NCBI GenBank assembly: GCA_027022365.1 | Contig: JALVYU010000026.1 | Location: 160,001-224,000 of the forward strand | Source of the DNA: Desulfurococcales archaeon | GTDB taxonomy: Archaea; Thermoproteota; Thermoprotei_A; Sulfolobales; Desulfurococcaceae | Length of the DNA stretch: 64,000 bases | Direction of reading: 5' to 3' | Part shown: positions 38,954 through 44,663 of the stretch, piece by piece | Layout of the letters: every line of letters starts with the position of its first letter | Position numbering within the stretch: the stretch's first letter is position 1 | Position numbers and translations under genes: made by a program | Notes under the pieces: generated by a model | Seen by the model: only the letters and a program-made list of their open reading frames with translations | Databases searched by the model: none | What the model was told of the DNA's origin: nothing

Positions 38954-39163
38954 ATGGTTAAGAGGAGAAAGATCCTTATTCCTCAGCCTAGGAGTAGATT
39001 CTTGAAGGTTGTGTGTAAGACCTGTGGTGCTGAGAATATAGTGTTTAGCCACGCGACCTTCCCGGCTCGATGCAAGGTATGCGGTACTCTGCTTGTCAGG
39101 CCTACTGGTGGGAAGGCCGAAATTATAAGGGAGCATGCCGAGATTGTTGCTGAGCTCGGATGA
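38954..39163 (+). CDS. rps27e: 30S ribosomal protein S27e
   Basis: PRSRFLKVVC..CG, C..CG..L..PTGGKA. Confidence 0.95.
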   Translation: MVKRRKILIPQPRSRFLKVVCKTCGAENIVFSHATFPARCKVCGTLLVRPTGGKAEIIREHAEIVAELG

Positions 39164-39332
39164 GATCGTTTCTCTTGTTCTTCATCTTTTCTCGTAATAT
39201 AGGTCTTTGATTATCCTAGTGTCTATTCTTCATAGGATGTATAGTAGTCGATAAGATTACTTCATTGTTTATTGGCGGAGGAAGATATGTATTATTTAAA
39301 AATTGAGTGTTTGTTATTACTTGTTCTCTTGA

Positions 39333-40025
39333 TTAGAATAATGCTGTACCTATAAGTATTGTTAGGAAGCTGACTAGCGGCACCGTTATGTTGTCATCGA
39401 TCGGGTTTGACTCGAAGTGTTCAACGATGCTTGCAAGTAGGCCTGCTAATGCCCCTATCCATCCTAAGGCTATATATCCTATTGGTATGACTACTGCGGC
39501 CATTGCTATGTTTCCTATCCAGGACTTTGTTCTTTTATTGTACAGCATGTTTCGAATAATACCTGTTACGCCGTCGCCGAACGCCATAAAGGCTACGGGT
39601 ATTACACCGTACCACCAGTTGTGGAAGATTAACCACGCAAGCGTAATGGTTACTCCCCACATAATTATGAAGTGTATCTCGTAGTTGTTCTCCTCTACTT
39701 GGAACCAGTCCATTAGTTGATTCCTTCTTCTAGGCAGCCATGTCAATATGGCTAGGATTACGGCTAGTAGTGCTGGGTACAACGGTGTTGTGTAGAAGAA
39801 TGGTACTAGAACCGATACAAGTCCTCCGGCCAGTATGTGTATTACTTTCCTATTATAGTAGACGGCCTTAATGTGTGTCATCCCTCTAGCACGCATCTTC
39901 TGGTACAAGAACTTCGTCAGTGGTCCGACGACGATCATTACCCAGATGAACAAGACCAGGGTAATTAAGCCCTCCCTAATCAATACACTAATATCCATGT
40001 TGTTCACCGAACCCAGTACATACAA
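39333..40025 (-). CDS. Dolichol/phytol kinase-like membrane protein
   Basis: RKVIHI, AFGDGVTG, KSWIG, DDNITVP. Confidence 0.85.
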   Translation of the reverse strand: MYVLGSVNNMDISVLIREGLITLVLFIWVMIVVGPLTKFLYQKMRARGMTHIKAVYYNRKVIHILAGGLVSVLVPFFYTTPLYPALLAVILAILTWLPRRRNQLMDWFQVEENNYEIHFIIMWGVTITLAWLIFHNWWYGVIPVAFMAFGDGVTGIIRNMLYNKRTKSWIGNIAMAAVVIPIGYIALGWIGALAGLLASIVEHFESNPIDDNITVPLVSFLTILIGTALF

Positions 40026-40106
40026 TACATACAGCTAAGTACAGCTACACACTAGAAAAATCTTCTAAATGTAAATATAAAAACCATACAGGCACAGAAA
40101 ACCCTC

Positions 40107-40165
40107 GGGGATGATGAAGGCCGTACTCACAGAGACAAGTGAAGAAACCTTTAAGTCCTGACCAC
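40107..40165 (+). ncRNA. Box C/D guide sRNA, likely targeting 16S rRNA near 890-915
   Basis: ATGATGA-aggccgtactca-CAGA..GTGAAGA-aacctttaagtc-CTGA; guides complement the conserved 16S GAGUACGGCC and ACUUAAAGG. Confidence 0.85.
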
Positions 40166-40180
40166 GCCAGAAACTCGAAA

Positions 40181-40240
40181 CGTGTGATGAAGGCTAGATA
40201 AACTGAAATACACGGTGATGAAGGTTTCTGGTACTGAAAA
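40181..40240 (+). ncRNA. Box C/D guide sRNA, target not identified
   Basis: GTGATGA-12 nt-CTGA..GTGATGA-12 nt-CTGA, canonical boxes and spacing. Confidence 0.8.
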
Positions 40241-40495
40241 CAATTATAGAACACATCAACCCCAACATGATATATTACCAGCATGATCCGAGTTATCACC
40301 GATACCATTGATACATGATTTTATATAGCCTGAACATGCCAGTAAAACAGCCATCTTATAAAAATCGCAATAAATATGAGCCACAAATACACATAGCATC
40401 AGCACATCTCGTTAATTTAATTCCCAGATAACACACCTATACAACTTATTAGAAGAAATGGTGGCGGGGCCCCCACAATGGTAGCGGGGGGTGGA

Positions 40496-41207
40496 TTCTC
40501 CCGGGGCGGCTGTCCGCAGAGTCTTATTCGCTATATGTAATGAGTATTATTGACCCTTTTAAAACTTACTACAAATCTTAGTCAAAGCCCTTTTCTCAGC
40601 TTGATGATGAATATCCATGATGTTATATAGATTGCATACGTTATCTTTTCTACTAATAACTAATCTATAAAATCCCCAGGTCTCGCCATAATTATATCTT
40701 AGAATCTATGCTGATTTTCCTAAGCATTTTGAATATCTAACACTCCGTAATAGTTCACAGAATTGATGATAACTCTATGTTTTTGTTTATCAATATGTCC
40801 TTCATCTATAAATGCTGAGATCCAATTAATGAGTATATTGGGACTTTTTCTTATGAATGCCTGTGCTCTCCATAATTTTTGAATTATTTGCACCTAAACG
40901 TCTAAGTGTGTAGTAAAGATATCTTGATTTAACTCTTGCTATATAGACGTGTTTTTGGATGAATATACAATAGTCGGGCTTATCTTCAAAACATCATATA
41001 TGTCTCTGGCAAATGAACTAATTAGTTCAATTGATTTATTAATATATTCTATAATGTAACGTTTTCCTCTATCTCCTTTCTCGACATATATATGTCCATC
41101 TCCGCAAATATGTGCATGAATCCTTGCAAAATAAGGATTATCCATTAAGGACATGTTATTCCCGTTTTAGATAGAATAGGAGAATATAAAGCGGACAGCC
41201 GCCCCGT
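40496..41207 (-). mobile_element. 712-nt intervening sequence at tRNA position 59/60 carrying a decayed LAGLIDADG gene
   Basis: Perfect 16-bp terminal complementarity 40502-40517/41191-41206; central helix TTCA/GGAG with 3-nt bulges. Confidence 0.82.
40559..41154 (-). pseudogene. Frameshifted two-motif LAGLIDADG homing endonuclease
   Basis: IHAHICGDG in the first frame, WISAFIDEGHI after a frameshift near 40950, YRLVISRKDNV tail after further breaks. Confidence 0.75.
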
Positions 41208-41229
41208 TTTGAACCACCGACCTCGGGGT

Positions 41230-41250
41230 GTCCCTGAGGCGGCAGCCTCT
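41230..41250 (-). other. 21-nt canonical tRNA intron at 37/38
   Basis: A GAGGC TGCC GCCTC AGGG AC hairpin with relaxed BHB. Confidence 0.88.
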
Positions 41251-41307
41251 TATGAGCTTCGCGGGGCGGGGCTACCGTCCCTGCTACTACCTTTATTATT
41301 GGGGGTC

Positions 41308-41481
41308 TTATAAAGTTTTATTCTTAGGTGTTATGAGTAAGCCTTTTCTTTTATTGTTAATATAAATTTCGACACTAAGTTCTATCCCTTCTTTCCAGCC
41401 TAAGGCTTCAACTAATTGTTTTGGTAGTGTTATTTCATAGGTGTAATATTTTTGTTTACCTTTCCTCTTTCTAAGTTTCAT
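41308..41481 (-). CDS. AbrB/MazE/SpoVT-family DNA-binding protein (57 aa, not in ORF track)
   Basis: MKLRKRKGKQKYYTYEITLPKQLVEALGWKEGIELSVEIYINNKRKGLLITPKNKTL; GGTGA RBS upstream. Confidence 0.8.
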   Translation of the reverse strand: MKLRKRKGKQKYYTYEITLPKQLVEALGWKEGIELSVEIYINNKRKGLLITPKNKTL

Positions 41482-41564
41482 TATTTCACCAAGAAATACT
41501 ATATAATCGTAGATAATAAATTTATATAGGAATTCTTTACAGAATTCCTAACAGAGGTGAAGAA

Positions 41565-42644
41565 ATGAAGCAGTCTATGGGTAATATTATCGCAAATTTG
41601 CTGGAAAATTATGGATCAAACTATCTTAATAAATGGAAATCAAGAGAACATTTACTGGGTAGAAGAAAGTTTTTGGTATATAATGTCGATGAACAAATAA
41701 AGTCAGAAATTCTATTTCTTCTTTATAAAGAACTTCACAACATAAAAACAACTACCTTTAAAGAAGTAAAGTTCTTGAGTAAGTGCTTAGTAATTAGGTC
41801 AACGCATGAGGCCCCGCTATGGTATAGATTAGGCTTAGCATTAAGCGATGGCTCTGTCCTAGGTAAAAGTAATATAATATTCTCTACATCAAAACCACAC
41901 ACAATAGATGCCGTGATGTATGGATTTAGTTATATAAAGATCTACGTAGCTAGATACATGCTAAGTATAAAAACTAACAAGATAATACCTGTTATTAACA
42001 TCGTAGTGAAGGATCCGGATACTGCATTACTTCTAAGACGTATTAAAGAAAACAAACTAGATACGGATCAATTTATAGATGCACTAGTTAATGATAGAAT
42101 GGCGTTGGCACAATTCCTAGCTGGGATAATAGATGGTGATGGAAGTATAGATTGTGATAATATAAGAATATGCATTGATAAACGTGATCCTCTATACACG
42201 ATTTTACAAAAAATCTTTAGAAATAATTTGGTTTATGATGAAAAACGATATATGTTAAGGATAAAAACACGAGCCGTTAGGGAACTAAGCATTTTAGAAG
42301 AACTAATAAATAACATAGTCTCGGAACATAAGAAAACTATGATTAAAAGAATCCTGAGAAAAAGAAAAAGATTCGTTCTAAACAACATCACATTAACAAA
42401 TTATAAAATTAAAGAAATCCTAGACAAACTTGATAATGATGATCTAAAAACACTTACCTTATTTAAATTTAGAAAAAAGCAAAAATATACCTATGCATAC
42501 ATCTCCTTTAACAAAAAGAATAAAAACTATATATTCAGCTTAATTAACAAGCTACTCTATAAAATAGAATCCGTACTTTTCTTAAACCTCCTCGATTCTG
42601 TTAAGGAAGGTAACAGAGAATATGTAATTTATAACAAAGAATAG
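41565..42644 (+). CDS. Two-motif LAGLIDADG homing endonuclease-like protein
   Basis: LGLALSDGS and LAGIIDGDGS motifs; GAGGTGA RBS; TTTATATA at 41521; Lys-rich, low GC. Confidence 0.82.
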   Translation: MKQSMGNIIANLLENYGSNYLNKWKSREHLLGRRKFLVYNVDEQIKSEILFLLYKELHNIKTTTFKEVKFLSKCLVIRSTHEAPLWYRLGLALSDGSVLGKSNIIFSTSKPHTIDAVMYGFSYIKIYVARYMLSIKTNKIIPVINIVVKDPDTALLLRRIKENKLDTDQFIDALVNDRMALAQFLAGIIDGDGSIDCDNIRICIDKRDPLYTILQKIFRNNLVYDEKRYMLRIKTRAVRELSILEELINNIVSEHKKTMIKRILRKRKRFVLNNITLTNYKIKEILDKLDNDDLKTLTLFKFRKKQKYTYAYISFNKKNKNYIFSLINKLLYKIESVLFLNLLDSVKEGNREYVIYNKE

Positions 42645-42855
42645 TAGAACTTATCAAAACACTTAGAATATATATTGAGATGGGGAAGGGACGGTAGCCC
42701 CTGCACCTCCCGCGGGCTACCTGGCTGCCCTACCCCGCTGTTTTGCCCCGCCGTATTGTTTGTGGTGTTTTTCGGTGGTTATAAGGTTTTCTGGGCTTTT
42801 CTTCTTGTTGTGTTGTTTCTTTCTAGGAGGAGGGAGAGGGGAGGGGAAAAAGGAG

Positions 42856-43602
42856 TTATTTTAGCTGGTTTAGCGGTGTGTATGTTTTTGCCGGTATGTA
42901 TGGTAGGATGTGGCGGGTTGTTTTTGGGCTGTATACTTTTCCTTGCCTAGCTATTTCTATTACTTCTTGTTTTGTCGGTGGTTTTCTCAGAAACAGGTAG
43001 TCGATCTCTCCTTTTTCGAGGTCTTGTATTGCTTCTTCGCGTAAGCCGTAATAGGCGAGCTTTATTTTTCCCTCGACGTTAAGCTTGTTTAGGATCTTTG
43101 ATACTTTCTTTTGTTCTTCTACGCCTCCCTTTATGATCCATGCTCTACCGTCTCGAGACAATATTATGAAGGCTATACCTCCCTGCTCCAATAGTTTTAT
43201 CGCTTGCTCCGCATCGAGCTTGGACTCGTTTATATCTAGTTCTTTAGACGCTTCTCGCAGGAAGTCATCGATACTACCTATAATAGCGGGATACCATGTC
43301 TCGAGCCTGATACTATCGTCAAAGTAATCTACGACGATCGCTGGTGCTTTGCGATACCCCAGCTCTTTTAGAGCAGCCCAACGATGATGTCCATCAACAA
43401 TCAAGTACTTATCAGTCCCCGGTATAGGGGCAACTATGATGGGCATATCCACAGCGCCCAAGTCCATGATCATCTTCTTTACATCCTCAAGGCGCTTAGT
43501 AACAATCTCCTCGTGCGGCACCATATTATCAACATCGATCAGAACTGGCTCAACCCGCTTAACCGGTATATTTAGCTTCGGCAGCTTTATGATCACTGAC
43601 AC
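42856..43602 (-). CDS. serK: Free serine kinase SerK (ParB/Srx fold)
   Basis: PHEE, DGHHRWAAL, TWYP, SPKTTRH; clustered with a SerA-like gene and an aminotransferase. Confidence 0.78.
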   Translation of the reverse strand: MSVIIKLPKLNIPVKRVEPVLIDVDNMVPHEEIVTKRLEDVKKMIMDLGAVDMPIIVAPIPGTDKYLIVDGHHRWAALKELGYRKAPAIVVDYFDDSIRLETWYPAIIGSIDDFLREASKELDINESKLDAEQAIKLLEQGGIAFIILSRDGRAWIIKGGVEEQKKVSKILNKLNVEGKIKLAYYGLREEAIQDLEKGEIDYLFLRKPPTKQEVIEIARQGKVYSPKTTRHILPYIPAKTYTPLNQLK

Positions 43603-43736
43603 AAGGCACCAGCCCCACAGCTTCTCTTGAGAGACAAGAATATACTAACATCTATAAAACGGTAATTGCATATACATACAATAGATATTCGTAGATAAAT
43701 TAGAGAAAAGAGAAGAAGATAAAAAGAAAGAATAAT

Positions 43737-44663
43737 TTAGTTAGACTTAAAGAATTCAATGATTTTCTCTGCGATCTGGACGCCAGCCCTCTCCTGGGCT
43801 TCGGTAGTCGTCGAGCCTATGTGTGGTGTTAGCACAACATTATCGAACTTGGTCAGCGGATGATCCTTGGGTAGAGGCTCCTCCTCATACACGTCAAGCC
43901 CCGCACCAGCAATCCAACCGTTAGATAATGCCTTGACAAGGGCTTCGGTGTCGACGACGCCGCCTCTTGCGGTGTTTATCAGTATTGCTGAGGGCTTCAT
44001 AAGCTTTAACCGTTCTTCGTTAATCATATGTCTCGTTGAAGGCAGTAAGGGCACGTGCAGGCTGACTATATCAGCTTCCCTCAAAACATCGTCAAGCTCT
44101 CTATACTCGGCATTAAGTTCTCTTTCAACATCTTCTATCTTCCCACGAGCATCATAGTAGATTATCTTCATACCGAAACCATAATAGGCTATACGGGCTA
44201 CCTCCCTGCCAATCCTGCCCATACCGATAATGCCGAGGGTTTTTCCCCTTAGCTCAAACCCCATGCACTGCTTCTTGGCCCAAACACCCTCACGCATCTT
44301 ACGATCGGCGAAGGCGATCTTACGTGCAACAGCAAGCATTAATCCAATAGCTAGCTCGGCAACACTCCTTGAAGGAGCACCGGGAGTATTCAGTACTGTG
44401 ATCCCTTTCTCCTTGGCCGCCTCAAGATCGATGTTATCAATGCCGACGCCAGCCCTGCCAATAACCCTTAGCTTCTCCGCGGCCTCGATAACTCTCCTAG
44501 TAACCCTCGGCTTAGACCTCACAATGATAGCGTCGGCGTCCTTTATCAGCTCGATGAGCTCGTCCTCGGAAGGATACTCTTTAACAATGACTTCGAAGCC
44601 AGCGCTTCGGAGCTTCTCGATCGCTTTGGGATGAAGGGGTGCGGCAACCAGCACCTTTACCAT
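43737..44663 (-). CDS. serA: D-3-phosphoglycerate/D-2-hydroxyacid dehydrogenase
   Basis: RAGVGIDNID, GMGRIG, NTARG, LDVYEEEP, TPHIG. Confidence 0.85.
   Translation of the reverse strand: MVKVLVAAPLHPKAIEKLRSAGFEVIVKEYPSEDELIELIKDADAIIVRSKPRVTRRVIEAAEKLRVIGRAGVGIDNIDLEAAKEKGITVLNTPGAPSRSVAELAIGLMLAVARKIAFADRKMREGVWAKKQCMGFELRGKTLGIIGMGRIGREVARIAYYGFGMKIIYYDARGKIEDVERELNAEYRELDDVLREADIVSLHVPLLPSTRHMINEERLKLMKPSAILINTARGGVVDTEALVKALSNGWIAGAGLDVYEEEPLPKDHPLTKFDNVVLTPHIGSTTTEAQERAGVQIAEKIIEFFKSN

Follow-up and report, generated by a model that had tools for sequence, protein, structure and literature searches.

An initiator tRNA gene in four exons

The genome of a Desulfurococcales archaeon from a hydrothermal vent (GCA_027022365.1, here G000) carries an initiator tRNA-Met gene that is divided into four exons (E1 to E4) by three intervening sequences (I1, I2 and I3). 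The gene lies in the 64,000 nt stretch analysed here, which comprises positions 160,001-224,000 of the forward strand of contig JALVYU010000026.1 and is referred to as the window; window coordinates are used throughout. Forty relatives used for comparison are designated G001-G040, and L numbers denote locus records. The gene extends from 42739 to 40479, entirely on the minus strand and with G+C-rich exons, and its components and the helix that flanks it are as follows.

42745..42752, minus strand: leader strand of an 8 bp leader/trailer helix, pairing with 40463-40470 as read from the sequence
42709..42739, minus strand: exon 1, tRNA positions 1-30, 31 nt; the same sequence occurs in G003, G005, G007 and G008
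41258..42708, minus strand: I1 at 30/31, 1451 nt, 31% G+C
41251..41257, minus strand: exon 2, positions 31-37, 7 nt, containing the CAT anticodon
41230..41250, minus strand: I2 at the canonical 37/38 position, 21 nt; hairpin and splice register read by hand
41208..41229, minus strand: exon 3, positions 38-59, 22 nt
40496..41207, minus strand: I3 at 59/60, 712 nt, 33% G+C
40479..40495, minus strand: exon 4, positions 60-76 and encoded CCA, 17 nt
40463..40470, minus strand: trailer strand of the leader/trailer helix, read from the sequence

When the exons are joined by their coordinates, ARAGORN calls a 77 nt tRNA-Met(cat) cloverleaf with A1-U72, a 5 bp anticodon stem composed only of G-C pairs, a regular T-arm and the encoded CCA, which is the product that the initial annotation had assembled from minus-strand exons of 31, 7, 22 and 17 nt. 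A1:U72 is a mark of archaeal initiator tRNAs, and it occurs here in a cloverleaf together with the CAU anticodon and G-C pairs at 29-31:39-41. Nucleotides 1-74 of the joined product are identical to the uninterrupted gene of two relatives, G014 and G017 (74/74), and the uninterrupted natural sequence of relatives scores 68.2 bits on RF00005 (cut-off 29). Sliding either long insert would change the product, so the exon junctions are unambiguous; because the product also matches the relatives' uninterrupted gene, the coordinates, lengths and break positions first proposed for the three inserts (1451 nt at 30/31, 21 nt at 37/38 and 712 nt at 59/60) are exact. The unspliced form of the gene is not reported by ARAGORN, by Rfam (39000-44000, E ≤ 10) or by RF00005 over the whole genome (45 matches), as had been anticipated for standard tRNA scanners. 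The G+C-rich 8 bp leader/trailer helix encloses the whole gene, and the same pair flanks the gene of G008; from its sequence, it could hold together the two ends of a precursor that is long or made in two parts.

Archaeal bulge-helix-bulge (BHB) motifs consist of a 4 bp helix between two 3 nt bulges that contain the splice sites, and in the canonical form the first two anticodon bases are inside the helix, according to sections of a 2014 review (Yoshihisa, PMC4090602). We read the BHB registers by hand from the sequence and from folds. In I1 the exon sequence CGCG pairs with the intron sequence CGCG (41263-41260), the bulges are GG/A and AA/G (the intron AA being 41259-41258), and beyond this core lie two pairs, an internal loop and a perfect 15 bp arm (5' arm 42701-42687, 3' arm 41282-41268). 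In I3 the outer helix is formed by the T-stem and the central helix by T54-A57 with the four intron bases preceding the last two, the bulges are AA/A and AA/T, and the closing helix is a perfect 16 bp arm (5' arm 41206-41191, 3' arm 40517-40502). I2 is an ordinary canonical intron with a 5 bp hairpin and three of the four central-helix pairs. The longest perfect Watson-Crick arms are thus 15 bp for I1 and 16 bp for I3, compared with a mean of about 5 and maxima of 8 and 9 in 500 shuffles. The two intron bases adjoining the I1 core and their partners covary, AGG...CC being replaced by AGA...TC in G035 and G011, and the closing helices diverge between lineages yet still pair in 15/15 I1 and 11/11 I3 folded cases. 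Arms, registers and covariation all agree with the original proposal that the long inserts end in perfect 15-16 bp arms with BHB geometry at the exon junctions. Two observations weigh against so strict a geometry: the I3 central helix in G000 has three pairs and an A.G mismatch (G026, G011 and G038 have all four pairs), and the minimum free energy folds of I1 and I3 adopt a neighbouring, near-isoenergetic register and not a strict 3-4-3 BHB.

The genome contains two EndA paralogue genes (PF01974, 199 and 202 aa, on contig C26 at 594618 and 391845), which we take to form the broad-specificity crenarchaeal heteromeric enzyme, and RtcB (matches at 605 and 545 bits). Given these genes and the motifs, EndA would cut within the 3 nt bulges and RtcB would join the exons. 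No RNA run was found to contain the locus, and transcription, cleavage, ligation and aminoacylation are inferred. A group I or group II intron was considered and rejected, as Rfam models of these classes gave no match in 39000-44000 at E ≤ 10.

The genome is a 44-contig metagenome bin of 1.74 Mb and 45% G+C, with completeness estimated at 99.97%. In a blastn-short search of the assembly with the joined product, each initiator exon was located at this locus only. Two further CAT tRNAs are present and both have G1-C72; one of them, of bacterial look (57% G+C), sits on a contig of 5354 bp (C1) whose 62.5% G+C, against 45% for the genome, marks it as foreign and probably as contaminant DNA in the bin. 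The check for another initiator tRNA suggested in the initial annotation therefore found none. An explanation to be weighed here is that the insertions have destroyed the initiator gene and that a working copy lies elsewhere, either missing from the assembly or on a contig that binning wrongly excluded. The bin is fragmented into 44 contigs, parts of it differ in composition, and the expected third archaeal CAT tRNA is likewise undetected. However, there is no second copy of any exon, the exons are 100% conserved while the decayed endonuclease gene of I3 (HE3, described below) has gathered stops, and the splice-motif residues and arms are maintained with compensatory changes across families. 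The same architecture is moreover the only exon 1 match in G005 (99% complete), and split forms are the sole copies in G024 and G026. We regard a dead gene as very improbable.

The junctions were also compared with independent assemblies. In metagenome run X3, from a separate study, record 7 crosses E1/I1 and record 5 crosses I1/E2/I2/E3/I3, each with 0 differences; under a 31-letter rule, the sole record that crosses I3/E4 is record 18 of run X5, which is a variant (24 differences, 9 gaps). In the sister species G005 the same inserts are present and measure 1451, 21 and 717 nt, and the layout of G004 agrees as far as its contigs extend. Short-read metagenome assembly is error-prone near repeated, conserved tRNA sequence, and the contigs of several relatives end within these introns, so that unrelated A+T-rich mobile DNA might have been joined chimerically between tRNA fragments. 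Such an artefact would leave the error-free crossings in X3, the concordance of the G005 and G004 assemblies, and the exact complementarity of arms placed just where the tRNA requires them without explanation, and it is extremely improbable.

Several other features of the metagenome data and of the bin are worth noting. Contigs in runs X4 and X5 skip 41416-42304 and 42382-42554, which would leave an I1 of about 400 nt without the endonuclease gene; in X5 these contigs are about as deep as the full form. At further metagenome joints (likeness 85) the I3 interior is replaced by 13-20 letters, and there are loose ends in which exon 1 runs directly into exons 2 and 3 and exon 3 directly into exon 4. 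All these variants have short sides (20-48 letters) and may derive from other organisms, and they are taken as hints and not as evidence. Within the bin, contigs C31, C30, C38 and C3 (691 kb in total) have no tRNA by ARAGORN or RF00005, while C26, C7 and C11 hold 44. The G+C content of the tRNA-free contigs is 46.8-48.3% versus 43.2-45.8%, and in some of them G+C-rich islands are roughly twice as dense; they could reflect heavily disrupted and undetected tRNAs, a replichore bias or a mixed bin. A mixed bin would weaken the completeness figure relied on above, though not the tRNA census. The ARAGORN list is without several expected anticodons, including His, Phe and the third CAT tRNA. Just downstream of the gene, on the plus strand and hence opposite to it, 40107-40163 and 40181-40240 give adjacent C/D-box sRNA-like matches (sR41, sR5, snoPyro_CD) at 19-22 bits, below the gathering scores of 40-54.

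Genes carried by the long introns

The two long introns contain the following genes and gene remnants.

41565..42644, plus strand: HE1 in I1, an intact 359 aa double-motif LAGLIDADG-type gene, antisense to the tRNA
41527..41550, no strand: perfect 10 bp inverted repeat with a 4 nt spacer, between the divergent HE1 and AbrB-like genes and over the likely HE1 transcription start
41308..41481, minus strand: AbrB/MazE/SpoVT-fold gene in I1, 57 aa, sense to the tRNA (PF04014, E 1.1e-6, 28.9 bits, cut-off 24.7)
40562..41154, minus strand: HE3 pseudogene in I3, a decayed LAGLIDADG gene, sense to the tRNA

HE1 belongs to a rare family, with only six relatives among 5.8 billion clustered proteins. Its two motifs, LGLALSDGS and GxIDGDGS, and their acidic residues D95 and D192 are invariant in 7/7 sequences. 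The AlphaFold model has a predicted local distance difference test score (pLDDT) of 88.3, and the top seven Foldseek matches in the PDB are all LAGLIDADG proteins (E 9e-5 to 3e-3), including bI3 maturase, I-AniI and the archaeal intron enzyme I-Tsp061I, with I-DmoI appearing from rank 9. HE1 is thus probably a LAGLIDADG homing endonuclease, with predicted site-specific cleavage, and nine of nine distinct loci share one site. Three results weigh against this assignment. The template modelling (TM) scores of the fold matches are modest (0.3-0.45), which reflects extra N- and C-terminal parts; HE1 scores below the cut-off of the Pfam LAGLIDADG_3 family, PF14528 (20.7 versus 22.5 bits, E 5e-4), its homologues scoring 14-19 bits; and a profile of the HE1 family gave 0 matches to PDB sequences. 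Weak HE1 matches also occur in DPANN and Halorubrum records (L050-L056, E 3e-7 to 5e-5), of which L050-L053 are without initiator exons.

The AbrB-like gene is present in I1 of G004, G005 and G035 (62% identity) and was not found in the other loci compared; the G035 homologue scores 24.5 bits on PF04014, just under the cut-off. Its product would regulate the divergent cassette, and from its sequence the inverted repeat is a possible operator. The repeat is identical in G005 and is not conserved in G035, and a conserved operator was rejected for this reason.

A more degraded state is seen in I3. HE3 in G000 is interrupted by eight stops in the best frame and by one or more frame changes, and tblastn with the intact 200 aa homologue of G004 recovers it as two overlapping pieces. 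Intact HE3 genes (200-209 aa) are present in G004, G007 and G019, where they match PF14528 at 33-44 bits (E 4e-8 to 2e-11). This family is also rare (12 relatives), and a sequence search of the PDB yielded only intein-endonuclease matches at E 0.3. In G000, then, HE1 is intact and HE3 is already dead. The initial annotation had placed a LAGLIDADG gene in both long inserts: this holds for I1, although the 359 aa gene is antisense, whereas the copy in I3 is a pseudogene. The situation is reversed in G005, in which HE1 is frameshifted (at about residue 226; L002/L045) and HE3 is nearly whole (192 aa).

Intron states among relatives

The mature tRNA sequence was searched against the 40 relatives with a spliced aligner and the results were corrected by hand; related loci were recovered from Desulfurococcales, Thermodiscus and Thermoprotei metagenome genomes. 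The aligner misplaced the 7 nt exon 2 in G003 and produced meaningless chains at loci that lack part of the gene (L003, L005, L008, L009, L011, L020, L021, L022, L035, L040 and L042), which were resolved by hand or left as partial (G029, G022). Among the 41 genomes including G000, 32 have a complete gene, six are partial or unclear, and three (G001, G015 and G036, with completeness of 79%, 77% and 99%) have no initiator match. The intron states are as follows.

Uninterrupted gene, 11 of 41 genomes: G009, G010, G012, G014, G017, G025, G028, G030, G033, G037, G040
Long insert at 30/31: G000, G005, G003, G035; partial in G004, G002, G020; split in G026; also records L048 and L049
Long insert at 37/38, 1250-1313 nt, with a third endonuclease family (HE2) on the sense strand: G019, G006, G018
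Long insert at 59/60: G000, G004, G005, G007, G019, G026
Mini-introns of 22-40 nt at the same sites and with the same core: G027, G011, G006, G016, G034, G038, G023 and others

Insert-free alleles, which the initial annotation had suggested looking for, therefore exist in the form of the 11 uninterrupted genes, and presence and absence vary on the same exons, which are identical through all intron states in the clade. Outside the uninterrupted genes, empty, mini and full sites occur in any combination, and the three sites look mutually independent: G007 has only I3, G035 has only I1, and G003, which belongs to the same genus as the window's genome, lacks I3 but has an I1 whose endonuclease is 41% identical. 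G027 carries a 252 nt I1 that has the window's arms and is free of open reading frames (ORFs). Each endonuclease family is confined to a single site. Relatives of HE1 were found by tblastn at nine distinct loci, all at 30/31 and all antisense, those of HE2 at four distinct loci, all at 37/38, and those of HE3 at six, all at 59/60; no family was found at another site.

Comparison of G000 with G005 shows that I1 is more similar than its surroundings. Identity is 98.9% over the 1451 nt of I1 and 94.3% in I3, compared with 93.4% in the flanking serK, 91% in a dehydrogenase gene and 89.5% in the downstream membrane-protein gene. HE1 is frameshifted in G005, so the close agreement of the two I1 copies is not accounted for by purifying selection on the protein. 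For I3, identity is 91.5% in G007, a genome assigned to a different genus whose contig with the intron gave no match to serK, whereas the same-genus G003 has flanks of 79-82% identity and no I3. The G007 comparison is to be read with reserve, as its intron contig is 2.3 kb long, the bin is 7% contaminated, and the genus assignment may be wrong.

A plausible scenario is that each endonuclease family would recognise the intron-free DNA of one site and cut it, the intervening sequence being copied in during repair, and that the endonuclease would then decay and be deleted to leave mini-introns of 20-40 nt. Homing, decay and deletion in this order make up the standard homing cycle. The initiator tRNA is a suitable target, since it has 74 nt that are invariant between families of the order and is single-copy and essential; the rRNA targets of homing are alike in this. 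We conclude, with a probability of roughly 0.78, that this is a working single-copy initiator tRNA-Met gene colonised at three sites by mobile BHB intervening sequences. This is in essence what was first proposed for the locus, and site specificity, the pattern of presence and absence, the excess identity of I1 and the presence of EndA and RtcB all support it.

A more complex relationship is seen in G024 (L021, C4, 3630-4096) and G026 (L022, C25, 33-2135), in which the gene is split at 30/31 and the two pieces are convergent on opposite strands. In G024, exon 1 and an arm are on one strand, and the complementary 16 nt arm, E2, an I2 of about 178 nt and E3-E4 are on the other, with about 165 nt between the converging ends. 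In G026, the 3' piece lies inverted after exon 1 and the antisense HE1 gene, and it includes a 775 nt I3 containing HE3. TATA-like boxes are present in both pieces, complementarity between the arms extends over 12-16 nt, and each genome has a single copy of exon 1. The link to the origin of split tRNAs raised in the initial annotation is thus strengthened by two genomes in which the gene is split at the same position, on opposite strands and with arms of the same type. For this order, split initiator tRNA genes were not found to have been reported in the full-text literature searched, which includes few subscription journals.

Among the various other insertions, we note that HE2 in G013 (contig C103, L008/L042, about 1796-2862) is interrupted by a minus-strand gene for a 289 aa TnpB/Cas12f-like protein (PF07282, E 8e-17). 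From its sequence, this is a predicted insertion sequence (IS) of the IS200/605 type inside a tRNA intron. G008 (L012, 1645-1674) and G016 (L014) have a 30-36 nt intron that follows linear position 65 and lies within the 3' strand of the T-stem, and G031 (L034) has a 14 nt insert in the D-arm after position 20.

Transcription of the gene and comparison with known systems

Promoters were sought with a matrix built from the regions upstream of 44 tRNAs of this genome only, which recovers the expected B recognition element (BRE)/TATA element. Two are relevant here.

42775..42792, minus strand: BRE/TATA-type promoter of the 5' transcription unit, score 11.7; the fraction of contig C26 positions with at least this score is 6e-5, and the gene is outside the training set of the matrix
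41304..41321, minus strand: predicted internal tRNA-type promoter, score 13.3, at a distance of 22 nt from the 3' arm of I1 and 46 nt from exon 2, upstream of both

On the tRNA-sense strand of 40300-42900 these are the two best scores, the internal box being the better, and only 2.3e-5 of the positions of contig C26 reach 13.3. A similar box is found 43-49 nt upstream of exon 2 in G005, G003, G035, G027 and L049 and, at the same spacing, before the 3' pieces of the split genes of G026 and G024. Scores of at least 8.5 at 43-49 nt before exon 2 occur in seven of eight distinct long or split I1 loci, and in I1 interiors at 6 of 5919 positions.

These observations suggest that I1 may be a tandem split and not a simple intron. 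The first unit would consist of the promoter, E1 and the 5' arm, and the second of the internal promoter, the 3' arm and E2-I2-E3-I3-E4. Pairing of the 15 bp arms would bring the two RNAs together, to be joined as in split tRNAs, with cis splicing of a read-through transcript also possible; I3 and I2 would be removed in cis from one transcript, and the excised I3 RNA would serve as the HE3 messenger where that gene is intact. The pieces in the window are collinear on the minus strand, so the gene is not divided between separate loci or strands as in a split tRNA gene proper. We consider the chance that I1 can be joined from two transcripts to be slightly better than even.

The alternative is that the gene is expressed purely in cis, as one 2.3 kb transcript from the promoter at 42792 from which EndA and RtcB excise all three introns, the I1 box being incidental or having some other use. 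All pieces are collinear and on one strand in G000, G005, G003 and G035, and BHB introns of this length in rRNA are spliced in cis. The box coincides in part with the stop codon that ends the AbrB-like ORF, L048 has only a weak version of it (4.7, at 52 nt), and the matrix was trained on this genome alone, all of which count against an internal promoter. However, a purely cis mode leaves the best tRNA-promoter match of the region as a coincidence. It also does not account for the constant spacing of the box to exon 2 across lineages with diverged arms, or for its persistence both in the ORF-free 252 nt I1 of G027 and in the two relatives whose 3' piece must be transcribed alone. A read-through polymerase would in addition have to pass a convergent endonuclease gene within the intron and, in G000, the 12 T-runs of at least five residues that I1 has on its tRNA-sense strand (I3 has none). 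The T-runs are given little weight, because I1 in G003 and G035 has only three and two such runs, about as many as the I2 introns with sense-strand genes; as possible terminators they are marked in G000 but not general across I1 copies. On balance we place expression purely in cis well short of even odds.

If I1 can be joined from two transcripts, its two-unit layout makes an inversion harmless, which would explain the split genes of G024 and G026. We tentatively propose, at somewhat less than even odds, that I1-type elements are promoter-carrying mobile introns, in which case homing would install a second tRNA promoter and a long pairing arm and so give rise to two trans-spliceable halves. 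Inversion (as in G024 and G026) or permutation (at 59/60, as in Thermofilum) would then be neutral, introns with homing endonucleases would be the missing mechanistic link among intron-containing, split and permuted tRNA genes, and the 20-40 nt non-canonical introns that are common in Crenarchaeota would be deletion scars. The origin of introns at non-canonical positions and of split and permuted tRNA genes has been debated for two decades without a mechanism having been caught in the act. In this clade, a single essential gene of 77 nt is found empty, invaded, in decay, pared down to mini-introns, disrupted by an IS, and divided between opposite strands. Standard scanners overlooked this genome's sole initiator tRNA, and counts of tRNA genes in comparable genomes therefore probably fall short. 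As predicted LAGLIDADG enzymes of thermophiles, each with a defined putative target, HE1, HE2 and HE3 may interest engineers of meganucleases.

The splice system and the class of endonuclease are known. What is new is their residence in a tRNA, with three site-specific families in one 77 nt gene, together with the antisense cassette with its own predicted downstream promoter and the direct series from intron to split gene. The two long introns are also far longer than any that we found reported for archaeal tRNA. Archaeal tRNA introns are given as 11-129 nt, and as non-coding except for C/D box RNAs, in sections of the 2014 review (PMC4090602). The window gene resembles the multi-intron tRNAs of Thermoproteales and Aeropyrum described there, which have up to three BHB introns, 30/31 and 59/60 included, and a broad heteromeric EndA (PMC4090602), and differs from described archaeal tRNA introns in having inserts of 1451 and 712 nt with protein genes inside. 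A 2023 meeting report treats tRNA introns as transposable-element-like and, in the portions accessible, mentions homing endonucleases only for rRNA introns (PMC10714607). No archaeal tRNA intron encoding a homing endonuclease was found in the same literature, including a 2026 Asgard tRNA-intron preprint, and the arrangement is apparently undescribed, as had been suspected at the outset.

Split tRNAs such as those of Nanoarchaeum equitans and Staphylothermus have G+C-rich complementary trailer and leader sequences and a relaxed BHB (Chan et al. 2011, PMC3218864, in part), to which the arms of I1 may correspond. The tRNA-Lys(CUU) of Staphylothermus is split at 30/31, the position of I1, and split-tRNA halves have their own promoters, as described in parts of the same source (PMC3218864). 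In the window, by contrast, one strand carries both units in tandem, and the 1.45 kb that separate them include a homing-endonuclease cassette. The permuted tRNA-iMet of Thermofilum pendens, with its junction at 59/60, is the same tRNA with the same BHB position as I3 and an encoded CCA (PMC3218864, in part); this likeness is one of description and not of sequence, and the window gene is not permuted and has a 712 nt insert instead.

A laterally moving ribozyme intron has reportedly been found in the anticodon loop of an initiator tRNA. Splicing at the present locus, which gave no group I or group II match, would by contrast be protein-dependent.

The closest parallel is with the LAGLIDADG-bearing BHB introns known in crenarchaeal rRNA genes (excerpts of Jay and Inskeep 2015, PMC4496867, and of PMC6125680). 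As in I-DmoI, I-Tsp061I and the Thermoproteales 16S introns, a G+C-rich BHB core and closing helix surround an A+T-rich endonuclease gene in the loop, and I-DmoI and I-Tsp061I are themselves among the fold matches of HE1. Both also share a conserved, essential host gene, variable presence and ORF-less remnants (PMC4496867, in part). Unlike the rRNA introns, those described here reside in a 77 nt tRNA gene in which three endonuclease families target sites within about 30 nt, HE1 is antisense to its host, and I1 has an AbrB-like gene and a predicted tRNA-type promoter of its own.

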